NCBI GenBank assembly: GCA_964516845.1
Contig: CAZEXP010000001.1
Location: 124,665 to 188,664 of the forward strand
Direction: 5' to 3'
Source of the DNA: an uncultured bacterium
GTDB lineage: Bacteria; Joyebacterota; Joyebacteria; Joyebacterales; Joyebacteraceae
DNA: 64,000 bases
Part shown: one piece after another, positions 46,872 to 54,828 of the stretch
Numbering within the stretch: position 1 is the stretch's first letter
Layout of the letters: each line of letters starts with the position of its first letter
The notes under the pieces: generated by a model
Database searches by the model: none
Told to the model about the DNA's origin: nothing
Seen by the model: the letters and a program-made list of their open reading frames with translations, nothing else
Translations under genes and position numbers: made by a program

Positions 46872-47818
46872 CGACCGTCAGCGTGGTCATTCCCACGTTT
46901 GGCAAGCGTCCGGTCCTCGAACGCACGCTGGAGTCCCTGCGTGTCCAGACGTACCCGACCGAGCTGACAGAGATCGTCGTGGTTGACGACCACTCGGACG
47001 ACGATACGTCGGAGTACCTCCGGAGCCTCTCGCTTCCGCAGCGCCTTGTCGCGATCCGGCACGATGAGAATCTCGGGCGCGCGGCGGCGCGCAACACGGG
47101 CGTCCGCTCGGCCACGGGAGAGCTGATCGTGTTCGTGGATGACGACATGCTCTGCGAGCCCGATCTCATCGAACAGCACGTGGTCTTCCACCAGGATCAC
47201 CCACGGTCTGTCGCTATCGGCGACGCGGTGCAGGCCCCCGAACTCGGCCACTCGACGGCGCTTTCGTACCTCGATGAGATGGGCGTCCACAAACACGAGT
47301 CCGGCTCGCGGGTGCCGGCGCGGTACTTCGTCACGAACAACAGCTCCGTCGAACGCCAATCCATACTCGACGTCGGTCTCTTCGACGAGAGCTTCCGCAA
47401 CTACGGATTCGAGGATACGGAGCTGGCTTTCCGGCTCGAGGACAACGCGGGTCTCTCGACCTGGTACTGCGGGGAGGCGCGCGCCCTCCACGTGCATCCG
47501 CAGTCGTTCGACGACATCCTCGACAAGAGGATCGAGAACGCGCCGCCGCTGCGACACCTCCTCGCGAAGCACCCGGATCGGGCGGGGGAGATGATGGTGG
47601 ACGTCCTGCTGCCCGTTGCCGCCGGTGACTCGGCCGCGCTCAGGGTTCGGAAGCTCCTGGTGGCCGTCGCCACGAACCGGCTCTTCTACCGGACGGTCCG
47701 CGCCGTTGCCAGGACCATCTGGCTTCGTGGACTCTCGCTCAAGGTGATGACCTACCTGATCGCCTGCCAGTACCGCGCGGGGCTCGCGCGGCCCCCACAT
47801 ACTCAGGAACGCCCCTGA
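46868..47818 (+). CDS. Glycosyltransferase family 2
   Basis: GTG 46868 with RBS ggaggaa in GTGA overlap. VSVVIPTFGKRPVLERTLESL...VVDDHSDDDT...VFVDDDM. Confidence 0.75.
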   Translation: MTTVSVVIPTFGKRPVLERTLESLRVQTYPTELTEIVVVDDHSDDDTSEYLRSLSLPQRLVAIRHDENLGRAAARNTGVRSATGELIVFVDDDMLCEPDLIEQHVVFHQDHPRSVAIGDAVQAPELGHSTALSYLDEMGVHKHESGSRVPARYFVTNNSSVERQSILDVGLFDESFRNYGFEDTELAFRLEDNAGLSTWYCGEARALHVHPQSFDDILDKRIENAPPLRHLLAKHPDRAGEMMVDVLLPVAAGDSAALRVRKLLVAVATNRLFYRTVRAVARTIWLRGLSLKVMTYLIACQYRAGLARPPHTQERP

Positions 47819-48055
47819 AAGCGGCCCCTTCGCGGCGTTTCAACACGTGCGCGACGGTTGGGGCGCGCGATCGACGATTGTAACAACCCCGGTGGCACAC
47901 TTCCTGCTTCCTACAGGGAACTGCACAGCAGATGACACGCATACGTTCCCTGCAGTGCGCGTGAGCAGTCACCAGGTCGTGGGCTGATCCCCAATACCCA
48001 GGTCATGAGTCGTACGCCACCTGTTGCACGCCTCAGCGGGGAACGCTTTTTCTCA

Positions 48056-48091
48056 GCCGCCCCCGGCTCTCTACGAGAGCCGGGGGCGGCC
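48056..48091 (+). terminator. 16-bp perfect GC hairpin (GCCGCCCCCGGCTCTC-tacg-GAGAGCCGGGGGCGGC), putative terminator of the glycan operon
   Basis: Read in sequence. Followed by cTTTCC and then directly by the BMC promoter. Confidence 0.45.
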
Positions 48092-48098
48092 CTTTCCA

Positions 48099-48128
48099 TT
48101 GACAGTCGTCACAAGCCTCTGATAGACT
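48099..48128 (+). promoter_or_regulatory. Sigma70-type promoter TTGACA-N18-(TGa)TAGACT upstream of the BMC operon
   Basis: Consensus -35, extended -10 TG and a TAGACT -10. The same cTGATAGACTGC motif recurs at 59317. Confidence 0.45.
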
Positions 48129-48205
48129 GCCCGGGTTCGCGGCAGGTGCCCATGCCGGTGGTGTTTACGCATACCCCGGGGGGGCGATTCCGGCGCTGTG
48201 GAGGC

Positions 48206-48880
48206 ATGTTCGTGAGCGACGTCACACGGATCGCGGATGAGGTGTTGAGGCGGCTTCAGCGGGAGGCGGGCAACCCGCCTCGCGCGCAGGAGCGTCTCGG
48301 GGAAGCGGGAGTCTCGATCCCCGTCGCAGTCAGCGCCCGTCACGCCCACGTCTCGCGGACCGTACTCGATCGTCTCTACGGGGAGGGCTACGCGCTCTCG
48401 AAGAAGAGCGACCTCGGACAGCCCGGGCAGTTCTCAGCCGAGGAGACGGTCACGGTCGTCGGACGCTCCCTGCGCGCCATCGAGGGCGTCCGCATCCTGG
48501 GTCCCGTGAGAACGTACACGCAGGTCGAGATGTCGCGTGCGGACGCCGTCCGTCTGGGCATCGACCCGCCGATCCGCCGCTCCGGTGATCTCGCGGGGAG
48601 TGCGCCGTTGACGCTGGTCGGCCCGCACGGCGCCGTCACCCTCAAGGAGGGTGGTATCCGCGCGACGCGCCATCTCCACATGACCCCGCGCGACGCGGAG
48701 GTTCATCGCGTAGCCGGCGGCGAGCTGGTCCGCGTCCGGTTCAGCGGCCCCGCGGCGCTCGTCCTCGAGAACGTGATGGTCAACATTTCCGAGGACGGGG
48801 CTCTCGAGCTTCATCTTGACACGGACAATGCGGGCGCGGCGGACGTGCGCGGCCCGATGATGGTGAGCATTCTGAAGTAA
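48206..48880 (+). CDS. pduL: Phosphate propanoyl/acyltransferase PduL-type (PTAC) with N-terminal amphipathic extension
   Basis: Two PduL repeats with VSARHAHVS and [11 protein letters not shown] histidine motifs. Start ATG 48206 or GTG 48212; the upstream part of the track ORF contains the terminator and promoter. Confidence 0.8.
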
Positions 48881-48995
48881 CGAAAGGCGTCACCACCCGC
48901 GCGGGTGGAGCGTCCCAGAGACGAGTGGGTCAGGGACGCCGGCAGCGAGACGCAAACGAGAGGCCCGCAACCGGGCCGGACGAGGGGGTGCGCAA

Positions 48996-49265
48996 TTGCC
49001 GGGTACGGCACTTGGAATGGTCGAGACCCGAGGTGTGATCGGTCTCATTGAGGCAGCCGACGCGATGGTGAAGACCGCCAACGTGACCCTCACGCGCTAT
49101 GAGCGGACAGGTGGCGGGTACGTCGCCATCTTCGTTCGGGGTGACGTGGGCGCTGTGAAGGCGGCGGTCGCCGCCGGAGTCGCTGCCGCGACCAAGGTCG
49201 GGGAACTGGTGTCACAGCACATCATCCCGGCCCCGCACGAATCGCTCGAGGAGATTCTGCTGTAG
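48996..49265 (+). CDS. BMC-H shell protein (PduA/EutM/CcmK-type)
   Basis: [28 protein letters not shown]...[12 protein letters not shown] is the canonical Pfam BMC domain. TTG start with RBS gaggggg. Confidence 0.85.
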
Positions 49266-49360
49266 TCTGACGGGAAGAACACAACGGCACTGGAAACGTG
49301 TGTCGCCATGGGTCCGCAACGGAGCCCGGGGCGACCGAACGCGAGACGCGGGAGGAGAAC

Positions 49361-49651
49361 ATGGGCGAGGCCCTCGGAATGATCGAGACCAGAGGTTTCG
49401 TCGGGATGGTCGAAGCATCCGACGCCATGGTCAAGGCTGCCAAGGTCAAGCTGGTTGGATACGAGAAGGTCGGAGGCGGCTACGTGACCGCCATGGTGCG
49501 CGGTGATGTGGCCGCGGTGCGCGCTGCGGTCGACGCGGGAACCGCGGCGGCCAGCAAGGTCGGGGAACTCATCTCCACGCACGTCATCCCCAGTCCGCAC
49601 ACGAGCCTTGAAGACGTCCTGCCGATCGGCAAGACCGCGAAGTCGAAGTAG
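49361..49651 (+). CDS. BMC-H shell protein, second paralog
   Basis: ATG 49361 with RBS gggaggag. [31 protein letters not shown]...[12 protein letters not shown]. Confidence 0.85.
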
Positions 49652-49652
49652 C

Positions 49653-49943
49653 ATGAACATCGGCCGCGTGGTCGGGACGGTTGTCTCGACACAGAAGGAC
49701 GAGAAGCTGGTCGGTACGAAGCTTCAGATCGTCAAGCAGCTGGGGCTCGACTGCGGCGAGACCGGTTCGTTCGTTGTCGCGATCGACGCCGTGGGCGCAG
49801 GACAGGGCGAGGTGGTCCTGTACGCAAGCGGCAGCTCGGCGCGGCAGACGCCGATCACCAAGGACCGGCCGGCTGACGCCGTGATCATGGCCATCGTGGA
49901 CTCGATCGAGGTCGACGGCGCCACCACGTACGAGAAGAAGTAG
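49653..49943 (+). CDS. BMC-P vertex protein (EutN/PduN/CcmL family), copy 1
   Basis: MNIGRVVGTVVSTQKDEKLVGTKLQIV...AVGAGQGEVVL. 96 aa. Confidence 0.85.
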   Translation: MNIGRVVGTVVSTQKDEKLVGTKLQIVKQLGLDCGETGSFVVAIDAVGAGQGEVVLYASGSSARQTPITKDRPADAVIMAIVDSIEVDGATTYEKK

Positions 49944-49993
49944 CGCGCGACGCATCGGGAGCCACCGACGCCTCCTCGGGGAGTTCTTCGCTC

Positions 49994-51418
49994 ATGCCCA
50001 TCGACAGGATAGGGATCGAGTCAATCGTCGAACGCGTCCTCGGAGAGATTGAGGGGGAACGCGCCGCGAGCCCTCCGCCGAAGGCCTTCGACGGGCGTGG
50101 GATACTGCCCGACATCGATGCGGCGACGCTGGCGGCGCTGAGCGCGTTCCGCGAGTTCTCGGAGATACCGCTCGAGGAGCGGCGCGACTTCATCTCCGCA
50201 ATGAGGGCGACGATCCTCGAGCACATCGACGAGCTCTCACAGCTCGCCGTCCAGGAGACCGGGCTCGGGCGCGTGGAGGACAAGGTACGGAAGAACCGGC
50301 TTGCGGCCCGCGCGACCCCCGGGGTCGAGGATCTGAGGGCACACGCCTTCTCCGGCGATCACGGTCTGACGCTCGTCGAGCGGGCGCCCTACGGCGTCAT
50401 CGGCTCGATCACTCCGTCCACCAATCCGTCCGAGACCATTATCAACAACGCCATCAGCATGGTGGCGGCCGGCAACACGGTCGTCTTCAACCCGCACCCG
50501 AGCGCGCGGGTGGTCTCGCTGACCACGATCGACCTGCTCAATCGAGCCATCGCGCAGGCGGGCGGCCCCAGGGCTCTCCTTTTCGCGCCGGTCGATCCAT
50601 CGGTGACATCGGCGCAGGAGCTCATGGCGCATCCGAGTATCCGACTGCTCGTCGTGACGGGCGGACCGGGCGTGGTGAGGGCCGCCATGCAGTCGGGAAA
50701 GCGCGTCGTCGCCGCCGGGCCGGGCAACCCGCCCGTCGTCGTCGATTCGACAGCCGACATCGAGAAGGCCGGCCGCGACATCGTCGCGGGGGCGACTCTC
50801 GACAACAACATCGTCTGCATCGCCGAGAAGGAGATCATCGTCGAGCGCGACGTGGCGGCGCTTCTCAAGCAGTCGCTCGCCGGGGCGGGAGGCGTCGAGA
50901 TCAAGGGACAGTCGCTCGCCCGGCTCATGGACGTTCTCATCGCGGAGGAACACGGTCCGCGACAGCCCGCAACGATGAATCGTGCGTTCATCGGCAAAAA
51001 CATCGAGATCATCCTCGACGCCGCCGGACTCTCATGCCCGCAGGGCGCCCGGATGGCGTTCTTCGAGGCGGACGAGGATCATCCGCTGGTCTGGACGGAA
51101 CAGATGCTCCCGGTGCTTCCCCTCGTCACCGCGCCGAGCGCGAAGGCGGCCATCGAGATGGCAAGGCGCTATGAGCGCGATTGTCGCCACACGGCCGTCA
51201 TGCACTCGAAGAACATCGAGCACATGTCGCTCATGGCGCGGGTGATGGACTGCTCCATCTTCGTGAAGAACGGGCCCTCGTACGCCGGGCTGGGGTTTGG
51301 CGGCGAGGGATTCACGACGTTCACGATCGCGAGCCCGACGGGCGAGGGGCTGACGTCGGCACGCACCTTTACGCGCGAGCGCAGGTGCACACTTGTCGAC
51401 TACTTCAGAATCGTCTAG
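49994..51418 (+). CDS. CoA-acylating aldehyde dehydrogenase (PduP/EutE-like) with N-terminal extension
   Basis: ALDH fold with the catalytic Cys region LDNNIVCIAEKE. N-terminal 40 aa precede the ALDH core. Confidence 0.85.
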   Translation: MPIDRIGIESIVERVLGEIEGERAASPPPKAFDGRGILPDIDAATLAALSAFREFSEIPLEERRDFISAMRATILEHIDELSQLAVQETGLGRVEDKVRKNRLAARATPGVEDLRAHAFSGDHGLTLVERAPYGVIGSITPSTNPSETIINNAISMVAAGNTVVFNPHPSARVVSLTTIDLLNRAIAQAGGPRALLFAPVDPSVTSAQELMAHPSIRLLVVTGGPGVVRAAMQSGKRVVAAGPGNPPVVVDSTADIEKAGRDIVAGATLDNNIVCIAEKEIIVERDVAALLKQSLAGAGGVEIKGQSLARLMDVLIAEEHGPRQPATMNRAFIGKNIEIILDAAGLSCPQGARMAFFEADEDHPLVWTEQMLPVLPLVTAPSAKAAIEMARRYERDCRHTAVMHSKNIEHMSLMARVMDCSIFVKNGPSYAGLGFGGEGFTTFTIASPTGEGLTSARTFTRERRCTLVDYFRIV

Positions 51419-51431
51419 GGGACATGCGACC

Positions 51432-52760
51432 GTGAGCGCGAACCTCAGTGATGCGATACGGGCGGCAGGTGTCGTGGGAGCCGGAGGCGGCGGTTTCCCG
51501 ACCCACGTCAAGGCCGAGGGCAAGGCCGATACGCTCCTCGCCAACGGAGCCGAGTGCGAGCCGCTCCTGAAGGCCGACAGCGCGATGATGAGGGCGGAGC
51601 CCGCGCGCGTGCTCGCCGGTCTTACGCTCATGCGGGACGCCGTCGGCGCCGAGCGCGCCGTCCTCGCCGTGAAACGCAAGAACCTCGACGCTCTTTCCGG
51701 ACTCCGGGAGGCGGCCGAGGCGGCGGAGGGCGTCGAACTCCTCGTCCTGGACAATGTCTATCCCGCGGGCGACGAGTTTCTGCTGGTCTTCGAGGCGACG
51801 GGACGCGTTGTCCCCGAGGGCGGGCTCCCGCTCGATGTCGGTGTCGTCGTGAACAACGTCACCACGCTGGCGCAGGTCGCTGACGCTCGCGAGGGACGCC
51901 CCGTCACGCACCGGTTCGTCACGGTGCAGGGCGAGGTGAACAGTCCCGTGACCTTGTGGGCGCCCGTCGGAACGCAGCTCTCGGCACTGCTCGATGCTGC
52001 CGGGGGACCGAAACTCGACGAGTTCTCGGTCATCGCCGGCGGTCCGATGATGGGACGCCTGGCCGACCTGACCGAACCAACCGACAAGATGCTGGCCGGG
52101 ATCATCGTGCTCCGAAACTCGCATCATCTCATCACGGTGAGGAAGGAGACCGCCGGTCACGCCCTGAAGATCGCTCGGGCCGCGTGCTGCCAGTGCATGG
52201 CGTGCACGGAGCTGTGCCCGAGGGCGCTTCTCGGCCACGACCTCCAGCCGCATCGAACCGTGCGCGCGATCCAGTACTCGATGGAGGCCTCCGAGCACGC
52301 GCACGTCACATCGGCGTATCTCTGTTGCGAATGCGGCATGTGCGAGCTCTTCGCGTGCCCGCTCGAGATCAGGCCGAGGAGGATCCTCTCGGAGCTCAAG
52401 GCCGAGCTCAAGCGGCGGGGAGTCGAGAACCCGCATCGGAGACGGGAACTCGACGCCGACGCGGTCCGGCAGTACCGACAGATCCCTTCGGCGCGGCTGG
52501 TCCAGCGTCTCGGCCTGTCTCAGTATGACGGTCCCGCCGAGGCCATCGGCGACGCGCTCCAGGCGCGGCGAGTGCGCCTGCTGATGCGCCAGCACATCGG
52601 CGCGCCGGCGGTGCCCGTCGTCGAACAGGGAGCGAGCGTGCTCGCCGGCGATGTCGTGGGTGAGATTCCTGCAGGAGCCCTTGGCGCACGCGTACACGCC
52701 AGTATCAGCGGCGAGGTGACGCGAGTCAGCACAACGGAAGTGGTCGTCGAGCGTCGATAG
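51432..52760 (+). CDS. PduS/RnfC-family Fe-S flavoprotein (Complex1_51K-like NAD(H)/FMN module + two 4Fe-4S motifs + C-terminal barrel-sandwich domain)
   Basis: GAGGGGFPTHVK...ANGAECEPLLKAD, CCQCMACTELCP and CCECGMCELFACP. GTG 51432 is 9 nt after RBS aggggac. Confidence 0.75.
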   Translation: MSANLSDAIRAAGVVGAGGGGFPTHVKAEGKADTLLANGAECEPLLKADSAMMRAEPARVLAGLTLMRDAVGAERAVLAVKRKNLDALSGLREAAEAAEGVELLVLDNVYPAGDEFLLVFEATGRVVPEGGLPLDVGVVVNNVTTLAQVADAREGRPVTHRFVTVQGEVNSPVTLWAPVGTQLSALLDAAGGPKLDEFSVIAGGPMMGRLADLTEPTDKMLAGIIVLRNSHHLITVRKETAGHALKIARAACCQCMACTELCPRALLGHDLQPHRTVRAIQYSMEASEHAHVTSAYLCCECGMCELFACPLEIRPRRILSELKAELKRRGVENPHRRRELDADAVRQYRQIPSARLVQRLGLSQYDGPAEAIGDALQARRVRLLMRQHIGAPAVPVVEQGASVLAGDVVGEIPAGALGARVHASISGEVTRVSTTEVVVERR

Positions 52761-52832
52761 CGCGCACCGCACGCGTCGACCTCGTAGAGGACACGACGTC
52801 ATGGATGACGCGACGTCGGAGAGGATGAACGA

Positions 52833-53423
52833 TTGGCGAAGAAGCGTTCTCAAATGGACGCCCCGAAGCGCGGACGACTCGAGGCGATCGCGATCATAGA
52901 GACCATCAGCATCGCCGTCGGGATCCAGATCACCGACGCGATGGCCAAGATGGCCAGCGTCGAGATCCTCGAATCGACTCCGATCTGTCCCGGCAAGTAC
53001 ATGGTGCTGGTGGCAGGCGGCGTCTCCGATGTGGAGTCCTCGCTGAAGCGTGGCATCGAGATCGGCGGGGACGTCATCGCCGACACCCTGTCGATACCTC
53101 ACGTCCATCCGGACATCTTCCCGGCCATCCTCGGCGCCGTCGACGTGGGCGAGCTGGGGGCGCTCGGCGTTGTCGAGACGTTCACGGTCGCCTCCTCGAT
53201 CCTCGCGGCTGATGCCGCGGCGAAGGCCGCACGCGTTCGTATCCTCGAGATTCGTGTCGCGAAGGGACTCGGCGGCAAGGGCTTCTTCACGATGACGGGC
53301 GAGGTGCACGAGGTGGAGGCCGCTATGGAGGCGGCTCTTCAGGTCACGAAGGAATCCGGGACGCTCGTGCGCAGCGTCGTCATCCCACGACCGCACCCGA
53401 GTCTAGCGGCGACGGTCCTGTAG
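52833..53423 (+). CDS. Tandem-domain BMC shell protein (BMC-T)
   Basis: 196 aa with two successive BMC-fold halves (AIAIIETISIAVGI... and LGALGVVETFTVASSILAADAAAKAARV...). TTG start with RBS ggagagga. Confidence 0.75.
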   Translation: MAKKRSQMDAPKRGRLEAIAIIETISIAVGIQITDAMAKMASVEILESTPICPGKYMVLVAGGVSDVESSLKRGIEIGGDVIADTLSIPHVHPDIFPAILGAVDVGELGALGVVETFTVASSILAADAAAKAARVRILEIRVAKGLGGKGFFTMTGEVHEVEAAMEAALQVTKESGTLVRSVVIPRPHPSLAATVL

Positions 53424-53455
53424 CGCGTCGCCACGCCTGCGGCGAAGGAGGAGCG

Positions 53456-53749
53456 GTGCATTTCGGCAGGGTCATCGGCTCGGTCTGGGCGACTCAGAAG
53501 GTCCCGACGCTCAAGGGCGCGCGGATGCTGATCGTCCAGCCTCTGACGCATACGCTCGAGGAGAAAGGGCAACCGCTCGTAGCCGTCGACACCGTCGAGG
53601 CTGCGCCCGGACAGATCATCTACTTCGTGATGTCGCGCGAGGCGTGCAAGGCGATGGAGGAGCGCTTCAACCCGGTCGACGCGGCGATCGTCGGCATCGT
53701 CGATGAGATATCACTGGCCGATGCAGCGATCGACGGGGGGGACGTCTGA
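53456..53749 (+). CDS. BMC-P vertex protein (EutN/CcmL family), copy 2
   Basis: GTG start with RBS ggaggag. (M)HFGRVIGSVWATQKVPTLKGARMLIV. Confidence 0.8.
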   Translation: MHFGRVIGSVWATQKVPTLKGARMLIVQPLTHTLEEKGQPLVAVDTVEAAPGQIIYFVMSREACKAMEERFNPVDAAIVGIVDEISLADAAIDGGDV

Positions 53750-53750
53750 C

Positions 53751-54023
53751 ATGTTTCTCGCACGCGTGATAGGGGAACTCGTCTCGACGATCAAGCATGA
53801 GTCGCTCCACGCCCAAACGCTGCTGATCATCGACCGGATCGATCTCGAGGACCATCAGACCGGCGCCACCCTGATAGCAGTCGATTCGGTGTCCGCGGGC
53901 GTAGGGGACACCGTGCTCGTCGTGGACGAGGGCGGCTCCGCGGCCATCGTCACCGGGCTTGCCGACCCGCCGATCAGAACGGTCATCGTCGGCATCGTCG
54001 ATCACTTCGACGTGGAGGTGTGA
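53751..54023 (+). CDS. BMC-P vertex protein (EutN/CcmL family), copy 3
   Basis: MFLARVIGELVSTIKHESLHAQTLLII...AVDSVSAGVGDTVLV. Confidence 0.8.
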   Translation: MFLARVIGELVSTIKHESLHAQTLLIIDRIDLEDHQTGATLIAVDSVSAGVGDTVLVVDEGGSAAIVTGLADPPIRTVIVGIVDHFDVEV

Positions 54024-54027
54024 CGTC

Positions 54028-54828
54028 GTGCTGAGCGAGTTCGAAGCGCGCCGCGATATCGTCGAGATCGGCCGTCGGCTCTGGCAACGCGGATACGTTG
54101 CCTCGAACGACGGCAACATCAGCGCGCGCCTCGACGGCGAACGGATACTCGTGACGCCCTCGGGCCTTTCGAAAGGCTTTCTCTCCACGACCGATCTCGT
54201 CGTTGTCACGCCCGAAGGCAGGAAGCTCTCGGGAGAGCGCGAGCCCACCTCGGAACTCCCGCTTCACCTCTCGGTCTACTCCCGTCGCGCCGACGTCGCC
54301 GGTATCGTGCACGCCCATCCACCGGTCGCGACCGGGTACGCCGTTGCTCGTGTCCCACTTGCGCAGTGCATTCTTCCCGAGGTCGTGCTGACGCTCGGGT
54401 CGGTTCCGACCGCGGACTACGCGACGCCTTCTACCTCCGCGGTTGCCGAGAGCATCGCGCGCTACGTCGACGACTACAGCGCCATACTGCTGGCGAACCA
54501 CGGGGCGCTCGCGCTCGGCAAGACTCTCTACGAAGCGTATTTCCGGATGGAGACGATCGAACACTTCGCTCAGATCGCCCTCACCGCGCGTCAGCTGGGA
54601 GGAGCATCGCCGCTGACACCGGGTGAGATCGAGGACCTCGCGGTGATCCGGGAGAAACTCGGCGTGCGAGTGCCGGAGGACAGCTGTCTGAGCTGTGGCG
54701 CGTGCACCGGCTCCGACGGCGCCGATGCCGGAACAGCGCCGTCCCGGACCGCGTCCGGCCAGGCCAGCCTCGACGAATCGCTGGTTCAGGAGGTCATGGC
54801 GGAGATCGCCCGACGTCGTTCCGGCTGA
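54028..54828 (+). CDS. Class II aldolase/adducin-family enzyme (fuculose/rhamnulose-phosphate aldolase-like) with C-terminal extension
   Basis: GTG 54028 with RBS ggagg 9 nt upstream. GNISAR, VHAHPP and LLANHGAL are class II aldolase metal and active-site motifs. About 50 extra C-terminal residues. Confidence 0.8.
   Translation: MLSEFEARRDIVEIGRRLWQRGYVASNDGNISARLDGERILVTPSGLSKGFLSTTDLVVVTPEGRKLSGEREPTSELPLHLSVYSRRADVAGIVHAHPPVATGYAVARVPLAQCILPEVVLTLGSVPTADYATPSTSAVAESIARYVDDYSAILLANHGALALGKTLYEAYFRMETIEHFAQIALTARQLGGASPLTPGEIEDLAVIREKLGVRVPEDSCLSCGACTGSDGADAGTAPSRTASGQASLDESLVQEVMAEIARRRSG

Follow-up and report, generated by a model that had tools for sequence, protein, structure and literature searches.

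Probable encapsulation peptides at the N-termini of PduL and an acylating aldehyde dehydrogenase in a metabolosome operon of an uncultured bacterium

Encapsulation peptides and the operon under study

N-terminal targeting peptides on the phosphotransacylase (PTAC) PduL and on the aldehyde dehydrogenase (ALDH) of bacterial microcompartments (BMCs) are a well-known, textbook-type feature, and an N-terminal encapsulation peptide (EP) of PduP and EutE was reportedly described by Fan et al. in 2010. According to the published definition (Kinney 2012; Aussignargues 2015, PMC4594438), an EP is a terminal, amphipathic helix of ~15–20 residues on an enzyme of a BMC locus, is attached through a poorly conserved flexible linker, and is absent from non-BMC homologs. 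PduL of the Salmonella Pdu, Planctomyces PVM and R. palustris GRM3 systems consists of such an N-terminal amphipathic helix, a linker, and a two-barrel core (PMC4784909; PMC4594438). The PduL peptide has been proposed to bind a hydrophobic groove between tessellated PduA tiles (PMC11157265), and EPs form trimeric bundles and condensates via hydrophobic packing and i,i+4 salt bridges (PMC12339742). Here, we analyzed a stretch of 64,000 nucleotides (the window; contig CAZEXP010000001.1, positions 124,665 to 188,664) from an uncultured bacterium of the Joyebacterota, for which an initial annotation had proposed EP-like helices on PduL and ALDH. Coordinates are those of the window, and all features given with coordinates lie on its plus strand.

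A Pfam scan of the window revealed a compact metabolosome operon of 10 genes (48212–54828) in the order PduL, two BMC-H, BMC-P, ALDH, PduS, PduT-like BMC-T, two BMC-P, and class II aldolase. The PduL of this operon shares the helix, linker, and core architecture of the characterized proteins, and every bioinformatic element of the EP definition is found in both PduL and ALDH. We conclude that residues 3–20 of PduL and residues 5–23 of ALDH are very probably EPs of a metabolosome-type BMC. The conclusion draws on the sequence anatomy, the predicted helicity and amphipathicity, conservation, purifying selection, the restriction to shell-associated homologs, and the operon context.

Helix, linker, and core of PduL and the aldehyde dehydrogenase

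The pduL gene (48212–48880) encodes a phosphotransacylase of 222 residues that matched PF06130 with 209 bits (cut-off 25) and NF011652 with 217 bits (cut-off 209). The residues R43/H44/H46, R153/H154/H156, and H201 were invariant in the PduL alignment, and the RHxH motifs place the protein in the PduL family; we take these residues to be those of the metal site. The core begins at residue 39 (counted from the ATG) in the Pfam PTAC match and at residue 36 (counted from the GTG) in the NCBIfam NF011652 match, and residue 37 is the first to align with the EP-truncated crystal construct 5CUO. An AlphaFold2 model, built with an alignment of 53 sequences, showed a helix at residues 3–20 with a predicted local distance difference test (pLDDT) score of 62–73, a disordered stretch at residues 20–32 with pLDDT <50, and a folded core from residue 36. 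N-terminal helicity of PduL is thus predicted with moderate confidence. The putative EP helix comprises 18 residues (48218–48271) and is followed by a disordered Pro/Gly linker at residues 21–35 (48272–48316).

To assess amphipathicity, helical hydrophobic moments were calculated with the Fauchere-Pliska scale in a 14-residue window, with p values against shuffled sequences; the Eisenberg scale and a binary scale were also run. On all of these scales, no window of PduL had a larger moment than the N-terminal one (p ~0.001–0.003). Conservation was analyzed for each protein in its 120 best homologs, of which many are named Candidatus Eisenbacteria. The motif M-D-[DE]-V-E-R-[IL]-A-x-E-V-x-R-R-L was present in 109 of the 114 PduL homologs having the core motif, and the length of the linker ranged from 10 to 72 residues. 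When the helix codons were compared with those of the three relatives L001, L002, and L003, we counted 5, 10, and 10 synonymous but only 0, 0, and 3 nonsynonymous differences, respectively. The sums of 25 and 3 derive from three comparisons that are not independent of each other. This synonymous excess indicates purifying selection on the codons of the helix and shows that the region is translated and constrained. In the linker codons, synonymous and nonsynonymous differences from the same relatives were about equal, and nonsynonymous change was elevated against the helix.

PduL is numbered from GTG 48212 because of the spacing of its ribosome-binding motif and the start codons of its relatives. 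A GGAGG sequence (48200–48204) is separated by 7 nt from this GTG, but by just 1 nt from the alternative ATG 48206, which would add the residues MF. The relatives L001–L003, whose PduL proteins are 88–97% identical, have a Leu/Val start codon at the matching site and no conserved ATG, and the sequence further upstream is unrelated. GTG 48212 is therefore the most likely start. The N-terminal letters quoted in the initial annotation were recovered on translation of 48206–48880, although the leading MF probably does not belong to the protein; the Pro/Gly linker that it placed before the first PduL repeat corresponds to the disordered residues 21–35 ahead of the core. ATG 48005, the start of the mechanically called open reading frame (ORF) 48005–48880, was rejected, as the upstream peptide is not conserved in L001–L003 and the stretch holds a terminator-like hairpin and a putative promoter. 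The GC-rich hairpin (48056–48090, 16 bp stem) would end the upstream glycosyltransferase unit. Directly after it and ahead of pduL lies a sigma-70-like, TG-extended promoter candidate, TTGACA-18-TAGACT (48099–48128), a consensus match with 10 of 12 positions, for which 0.1 were expected in shuffled sequences. Both elements lie inside this ORF. An Rfam scan of 47600–48400 yielded nothing above any gathering score.

Relatives of the PduL protein show some variation around the helix. The closest genome locus, L001 (binchicken_co334_58), encodes a PduL with 97% identity. Many relatives (P0060–P0112, L013–L017) have linkers of 40–72 residues rich in Gly, Ser, Glu, Thr, and Pro, and some of the long linkers contain short repeats, for example AGKAEAGKAEAGKA in P0080. 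In Poribacteria (L024–L080), PduL homologs occur in small loci of the type 'BMC-H + PduL'. Between the N-terminal helix and the core, these proteins share a conserved motif with four cysteines, C[SG]GCAL[RK]xCxxGxRAC, as a possible binding site for a metal or an Fe-S cluster. The motif is unmentioned in the description of FRAG2 in the supplement of Sutter 2021 (PMC8217296).

The ALDH gene (49994–51418) encodes a CoA-acylating enzyme of the EutE/PduP family with 474 residues, according to Pfam, PDB, and NCBIfam matches. It matched NF011927, which we take to be the EutE-type model, with 632 bits (cut-off 403) and 5JFL with an E value of 9e-129, which places it among the EutE/PduP-type enzymes. 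Cys275, presumably the catalytic residue, was invariant in the homolog alignment. The ORF begins with MPIDRIGIESIVERVLGEIEGERAASPPPKAFDGRGILPD. The core aligns to PduP homologs in the PDB from residues 31–36 and starts at about residue 36. AdhE-type enzymes align from residues 40–49, at their own residues 8–19, and the non-BMC dehydrogenases of the AdhE/SucD type start 30–34 residues later than the window ALDH. The alignment to NF011927 starts at query residue 6; the family model therefore takes in the helix.

In the AlphaFold2 model of ALDH, DSSP assigned a helix to residues 5–23 that is detached from the core, with pLDDT <50 for residues 1–28, so that helicity is predicted here with low confidence. 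This putative EP helix (50006–50062) has a hydrophobic face formed by I8, I11, V12, V15, L16, and I19, and is joined to the core by a linker of low pLDDT and variable length at residues 24–35, AASPPPKAFDGR (50063–50098). The 14-residue window IESIVERVLGEIEG ranked first of 461 by hydrophobic moment on the Fauchere-Pliska and binary scales (p ~0.005–0.01). The motif I-x-x-I-V-x-x-V-[VL]-x-E-L was found in 108 of 120 homologs when counted on the alignment; a stricter regular expression matched 36 of 120. The columns of I8, I11, V12, V15, and I19 were 74–95% conserved, compared with 20–50% for the intervening columns, and position 16 was hydrophobic (V/L, with V in 48%). The distance from helix to core ranged from 19 to 68 residues. 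The exact 474-residue ALDH was also encoded on short contigs from the runs SRR8943083, SRR8943089, and ERR5010701 (L088–L090).

Distribution of the helices and alternative explanations

In both proteins, the hydrophobic residues of the helix fall within an arc of ~140 degrees on the helical wheel, the N-terminal windows ranked first on the Fauchere-Pliska and binary scales (p 0.003–0.016), and only PduL was significant on the Eisenberg scale. The hydrophobic face is conserved across ~110 homologs of each, and the linker length varies widely. A scan of a genome collection identified 80 related loci, all of which encode the PduL N-terminal helix (80/80); shell genes were located within 10 kb in every case except for two contig-truncated loci. 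The PduL proteins of PDU/EUT-type plasmid loci from Brevibacillus, Ilyobacter, and Cetobacterium also carry the helix (3/3). This results in 83 helix-bearing PduL loci, all shell-associated apart from the two truncated ones. As the genome collection gave only close, shell-associated relatives, non-BMC controls were taken from the plasmid collection. The stand-alone PduL of Acetoanaerobium, with no shell gene within 15 kb, begins directly at the core (MK|LPIALSNRH), and in three Ack-PduL fusions from non-BMC contexts (Sinorhizobium, Polaromonas, Paracoccus) the kinase is joined to the core; none of the four has the helix. Published surveys agree with a restriction of the PduL helix to shell-associated homologs (PMC4594438, PMC4784909).

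These results bear on the remaining statements of the initial annotation. The ALDH segment that it quoted indeed precedes the core. The hydrophobic periodicity and flexible linker, which it regarded as typical of BMC cargo-targeting peptides, are borne out by the top-ranking moments, the narrow hydrophobic arc, and the variable linkers of low pLDDT. Helical-wheel analysis and secondary-structure prediction, both of which it had suggested, returned the helices in PduL and ALDH with the moderate and low confidence given above. Its view that the extensions are extra relative to non-BMC homologs also held: the stand-alone PduL, the Ack-PduL fusions, and the AdhE/SucD-type dehydrogenases lack the segment, and no non-BMC homolog carrying it was found in this small sample of four PduL controls and AdhE/SucD-type enzymes.

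Several observations weigh against the assignment of the two segments as EPs. The N-terminus of ALDH has a pLDDT <50 and its helix comes from the secondary-structure assignment only, so that the support for this helix is weaker. On the Eisenberg scale at 100 degrees, the helices of ALDH and of the aldolase discussed below were no more amphipathic than shuffled sequences; the same analysis gave a periodicity nearer 80–90 degrees for both. One sub-clade of ALDH homologs from related loci has the degenerate N-terminus MRGIVGAAVGG, and the ALDH helix is thus not universal. Moreover, the non-BMC PduL controls are few (n=4); three are fusions, one of which is frameshifted. The sub-clade itself (P0135, P0147, P0157, P0162, P0168, P0172; about 67–69% identity) has MRGIVGAAVGG in place of the IxxIVxxVVxEL helix, and this N-terminus may be a decaying or an alternative targeting signal.

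An explanation that we regard as possible, though doubtful, is that the helices serve mainly as self-association or oligomerization modules, which would determine the quaternary structure of the two enzymes or drive cargo condensation, with packaging being indirect and without direct shell contact. Removal of the PduL peptide is published to alter oligomeric state and solubility, and the salt bridges described for EP bundles and condensates (PMC12339742) have counterparts here, since i,i+4 acid/base pairs occur in all three operon helices considered (D9-R13 and E10-R14 in PduL, R14-E18 in ALDH, and likewise in the aldolase). However, self-association is compatible with docking to the shell, published work points to binding of tessellated PduA by the PduL peptide (PMC11157265), and the window sequence does not separate the two. 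We consider it very unlikely that the segments are ordinary N-terminal fold elements or enzyme-specific regulatory helices unrelated to the microcompartment. It is true that amphipathic helices are common in proteins and that the ALDH core has helices with comparable Eisenberg moments. Yet neither segment falls within the core as delimited by Pfam, NCBIfam, or PDB matches; a disordered linker, which varies in length, connects each to its core, and the segments are absent from non-BMC PduL and AdhE/SucD-type enzymes. The same type of motif furthermore recurs in the aldolase, a third and unrelated enzyme encoded by the operon, at the opposite terminus.

Even less credible is an annotation artefact, in which translation would begin downstream and the helices would merely be an untranslated leader. 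The start of PduL is ambiguous between ATG 48206, GTG 48212, and the mechanical ORF start at 48005, which leaves some room for such a reading. Against it stand the codons of the PduL helix, which are strongly richer in synonymous than in nonsynonymous change, the conservation of the amino-acid helix motif down to about 55% identity, the Shine-Dalgarno sequence before GTG 48212 with the putative promoter and terminator further upstream, and the fact that no in-frame start between helix and core would keep the core intact. We likewise see hardly any chance that the helices are membrane-targeting elements of the MinD/FtsA type that hold the enzymes at the inner membrane. They are short, terminal, and amphipathic, as such elements would be, but they are also highly charged, with a mean hydrophobicity of -0.44 for the PduL helix, and strictly co-occur with shell genes. 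The ALDH helix, in addition, lies within the aldehyde dehydrogenase model NF011927, which we take to be EutE-type. The reading as EPs of a metabolosome remains the most probable one.

If the segments are EPs, each would be an amphipathic α-helix tethered to its catalytic domain by a disordered, fast-evolving linker. Shell binding, self-association, and packaging of PduL and ALDH would be expected from the literature. In analogy to the characterized Pdu/Eut peptides, the hydrophobic face (ΦΦ-xx-ΦΦ-xx-Φ) would bundle the cargo enzymes, including the aldolase, and would also attach the cargo to the BMC-H shell tiles on their lumenal side. Co-packaging of aldolase, ALDH, and PduL would keep the aldehyde intermediate and the CoA pool inside the shell.

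Operon context and comparison with described metabolosomes

The operon contains six shell genes (two BMC-H, one BMC-T, and three BMC-P). Two BMC-H genes (48996–49265 and 49358–49651; PF00936 with 101 and 105 bits, respectively) and a BMC-P gene for a vertex protein of the EutN/CcmL type (49665–49943; Pfam) are flanked by the PduL and ALDH genes. Downstream of the ALDH gene follows a gene for a PduS-like flavoprotein/Fe-S protein with the domain order Complex1_51K-SLBB-Fer4-RnfC_N (51432–52760), the start of which was adopted from the gene call, with TTG 51393 as an alternative. The C-terminal RnfC_N domain occurs in the same order in PduS of an Ilyobacter PDU locus. An EP was looked for at both ends of the PduS-like protein and not found. 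The protein presumably associates via the PduT-like tandem BMC-T (52833–53423), the gene of which lies directly downstream. The latter was identified with Pfam, the TIGR02526 match being below its cut-off, and contains an ICPGK motif, which we take to hold the pore cysteine. The pair suggests, on sequence grounds, an electron-transfer conduit across the shell. Two further BMC-P genes (53456–53749 and 53751–54023; both Pfam) precede that of the class II aldolase (PF00596; 54028–54828), which starts at GTG 54028 behind a GGAGG sequence at 54014–54018.

The aldolase, which reached no NCBIfam equivalog cut-off, is the probable signature enzyme of the locus. Its C-terminus carries a third candidate EP, the amphipathic segment LDESLVQEVMAEIARRR (54769–54819), which is preceded by a CxxCGxC motif and by a variable linker rich in Ser, Thr, Ala, and Gly. 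The motif [DE]xx[IL][IV]xxV[ILM]xx[ILV] was present in every syntenic locus that has kept the aldolase gene (17/17), and the segment had a binary-scale moment with p ~0.01–0.03. With this C-terminal peptide, the operon would encode three rather than two tagged cargo enzymes. The peptides of PduL, ALDH, and aldolase align as ΦΦ-xx-ΦΦ-xx-Φ.

The operon is preceded by glycosyltransferase genes. No link to the organelle was seen for any of the flanking genes (glycosyltransferases, SppA, HU, PilZ, FadL-like, and TPR proteins, with SppA, HU, and PilZ located downstream). A gene scan of the window revealed neither an acetate kinase nor an alcohol dehydrogenase in or next to the locus. The exact gene order is common to more than 20 Eisenbacteria-like genomes and metagenome-assembled genomes. 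We raise, as a tentative proposal, that the operon represents an uncatalogued complete-core metabolosome subtype that is widespread in Eisenbacteria-like lineages, with a core of class II aldolase, ALDH, PduL, and the PduS/PduT pair, without kinase or alcohol dehydrogenase, and with three cargo enzymes sharing the consensus ΦΦ-x-[ED/R]-V-[LM]-x-x-[LI]. If true, the shared consensus would point to one docking or bundling site common to all three, and the expansion of the PduL linker to 72 residues in relatives would possibly tune the packing geometry.

The metabolosome of this uncultured lineage would use the standard targeting system, which is of little significance on its own. The assigned start codons of pduL and the aldolase gene and the identification of three cargo enzymes help in annotating the locus. 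As engineering tags, the three short peptides could be of use, and for heterologous expression of shell plus cargo the conserved operon of 10 genes offers a compact candidate. What the aldolase converts, and with it the pathway, is a more interesting question than the peptides.

Comparison of the individual peptides with known ones revealed both similarities and differences. Like the N-terminal peptides of PduP and EutE, that of the window ALDH consists of an IxxIVxxVLxxI helix (residues 8–19) and a Pro/Ala-rich linker ahead of the acylating ALDH core. EutE of Salmonella begins with MNQQDIEQVVKAVLLKM, which has the same pattern as the window ALDH. The last hydrophobic spacing is i+3 (L16 to I19) in the window ALDH but i+4 (L14 to L18) in PduP, and the order of the acid/base pair is reversed (R14-E18 versus E7-R11). 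The PduL peptide has no identity with that of Salmonella PduL beyond the hydrophobic pattern. Its linker comprises 15 residues here and 10–72 in relatives, whereas linkers in a survey from 2015 averaged 7 residues and spanned 1–35 (PMC4594438).

At the level of the locus, the layout with an N-terminal peptide on ALDH, an N-terminal one on the PTAC, and a C-terminal one on the aldolase is that catalogued for MUF2/MUF3 (PMC8217296, Supplementary Data 2); individual peptide positions have also been catalogued for PVM-type enzymes. The closest described loci are, as a group, the aldolase-type PVM, MUF2, MUF3, MIC4, and MIC7, among which the combination of AldDh, PTAC, and pfam00596 aldolase with a BMC-P triplet and the PduS/PduT pair recurs; PVM and MIC4 are listed with these enzymes as well (PMC8217296). 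BMC genes have been noted, in less detail, in the neighboring phylum Effluviviacota (PMC11323493). In its shell complement and PduS/PduT pair, the locus fits MIC7 of Eisenbacteria/Latescibacteria (Sutter 2021, PMC8217296). Compared by description and gene content, the window locus additionally has a PTAC and a class II aldolase. It may, on this basis, be a complete-core relative that is not obviously covered by a named type.

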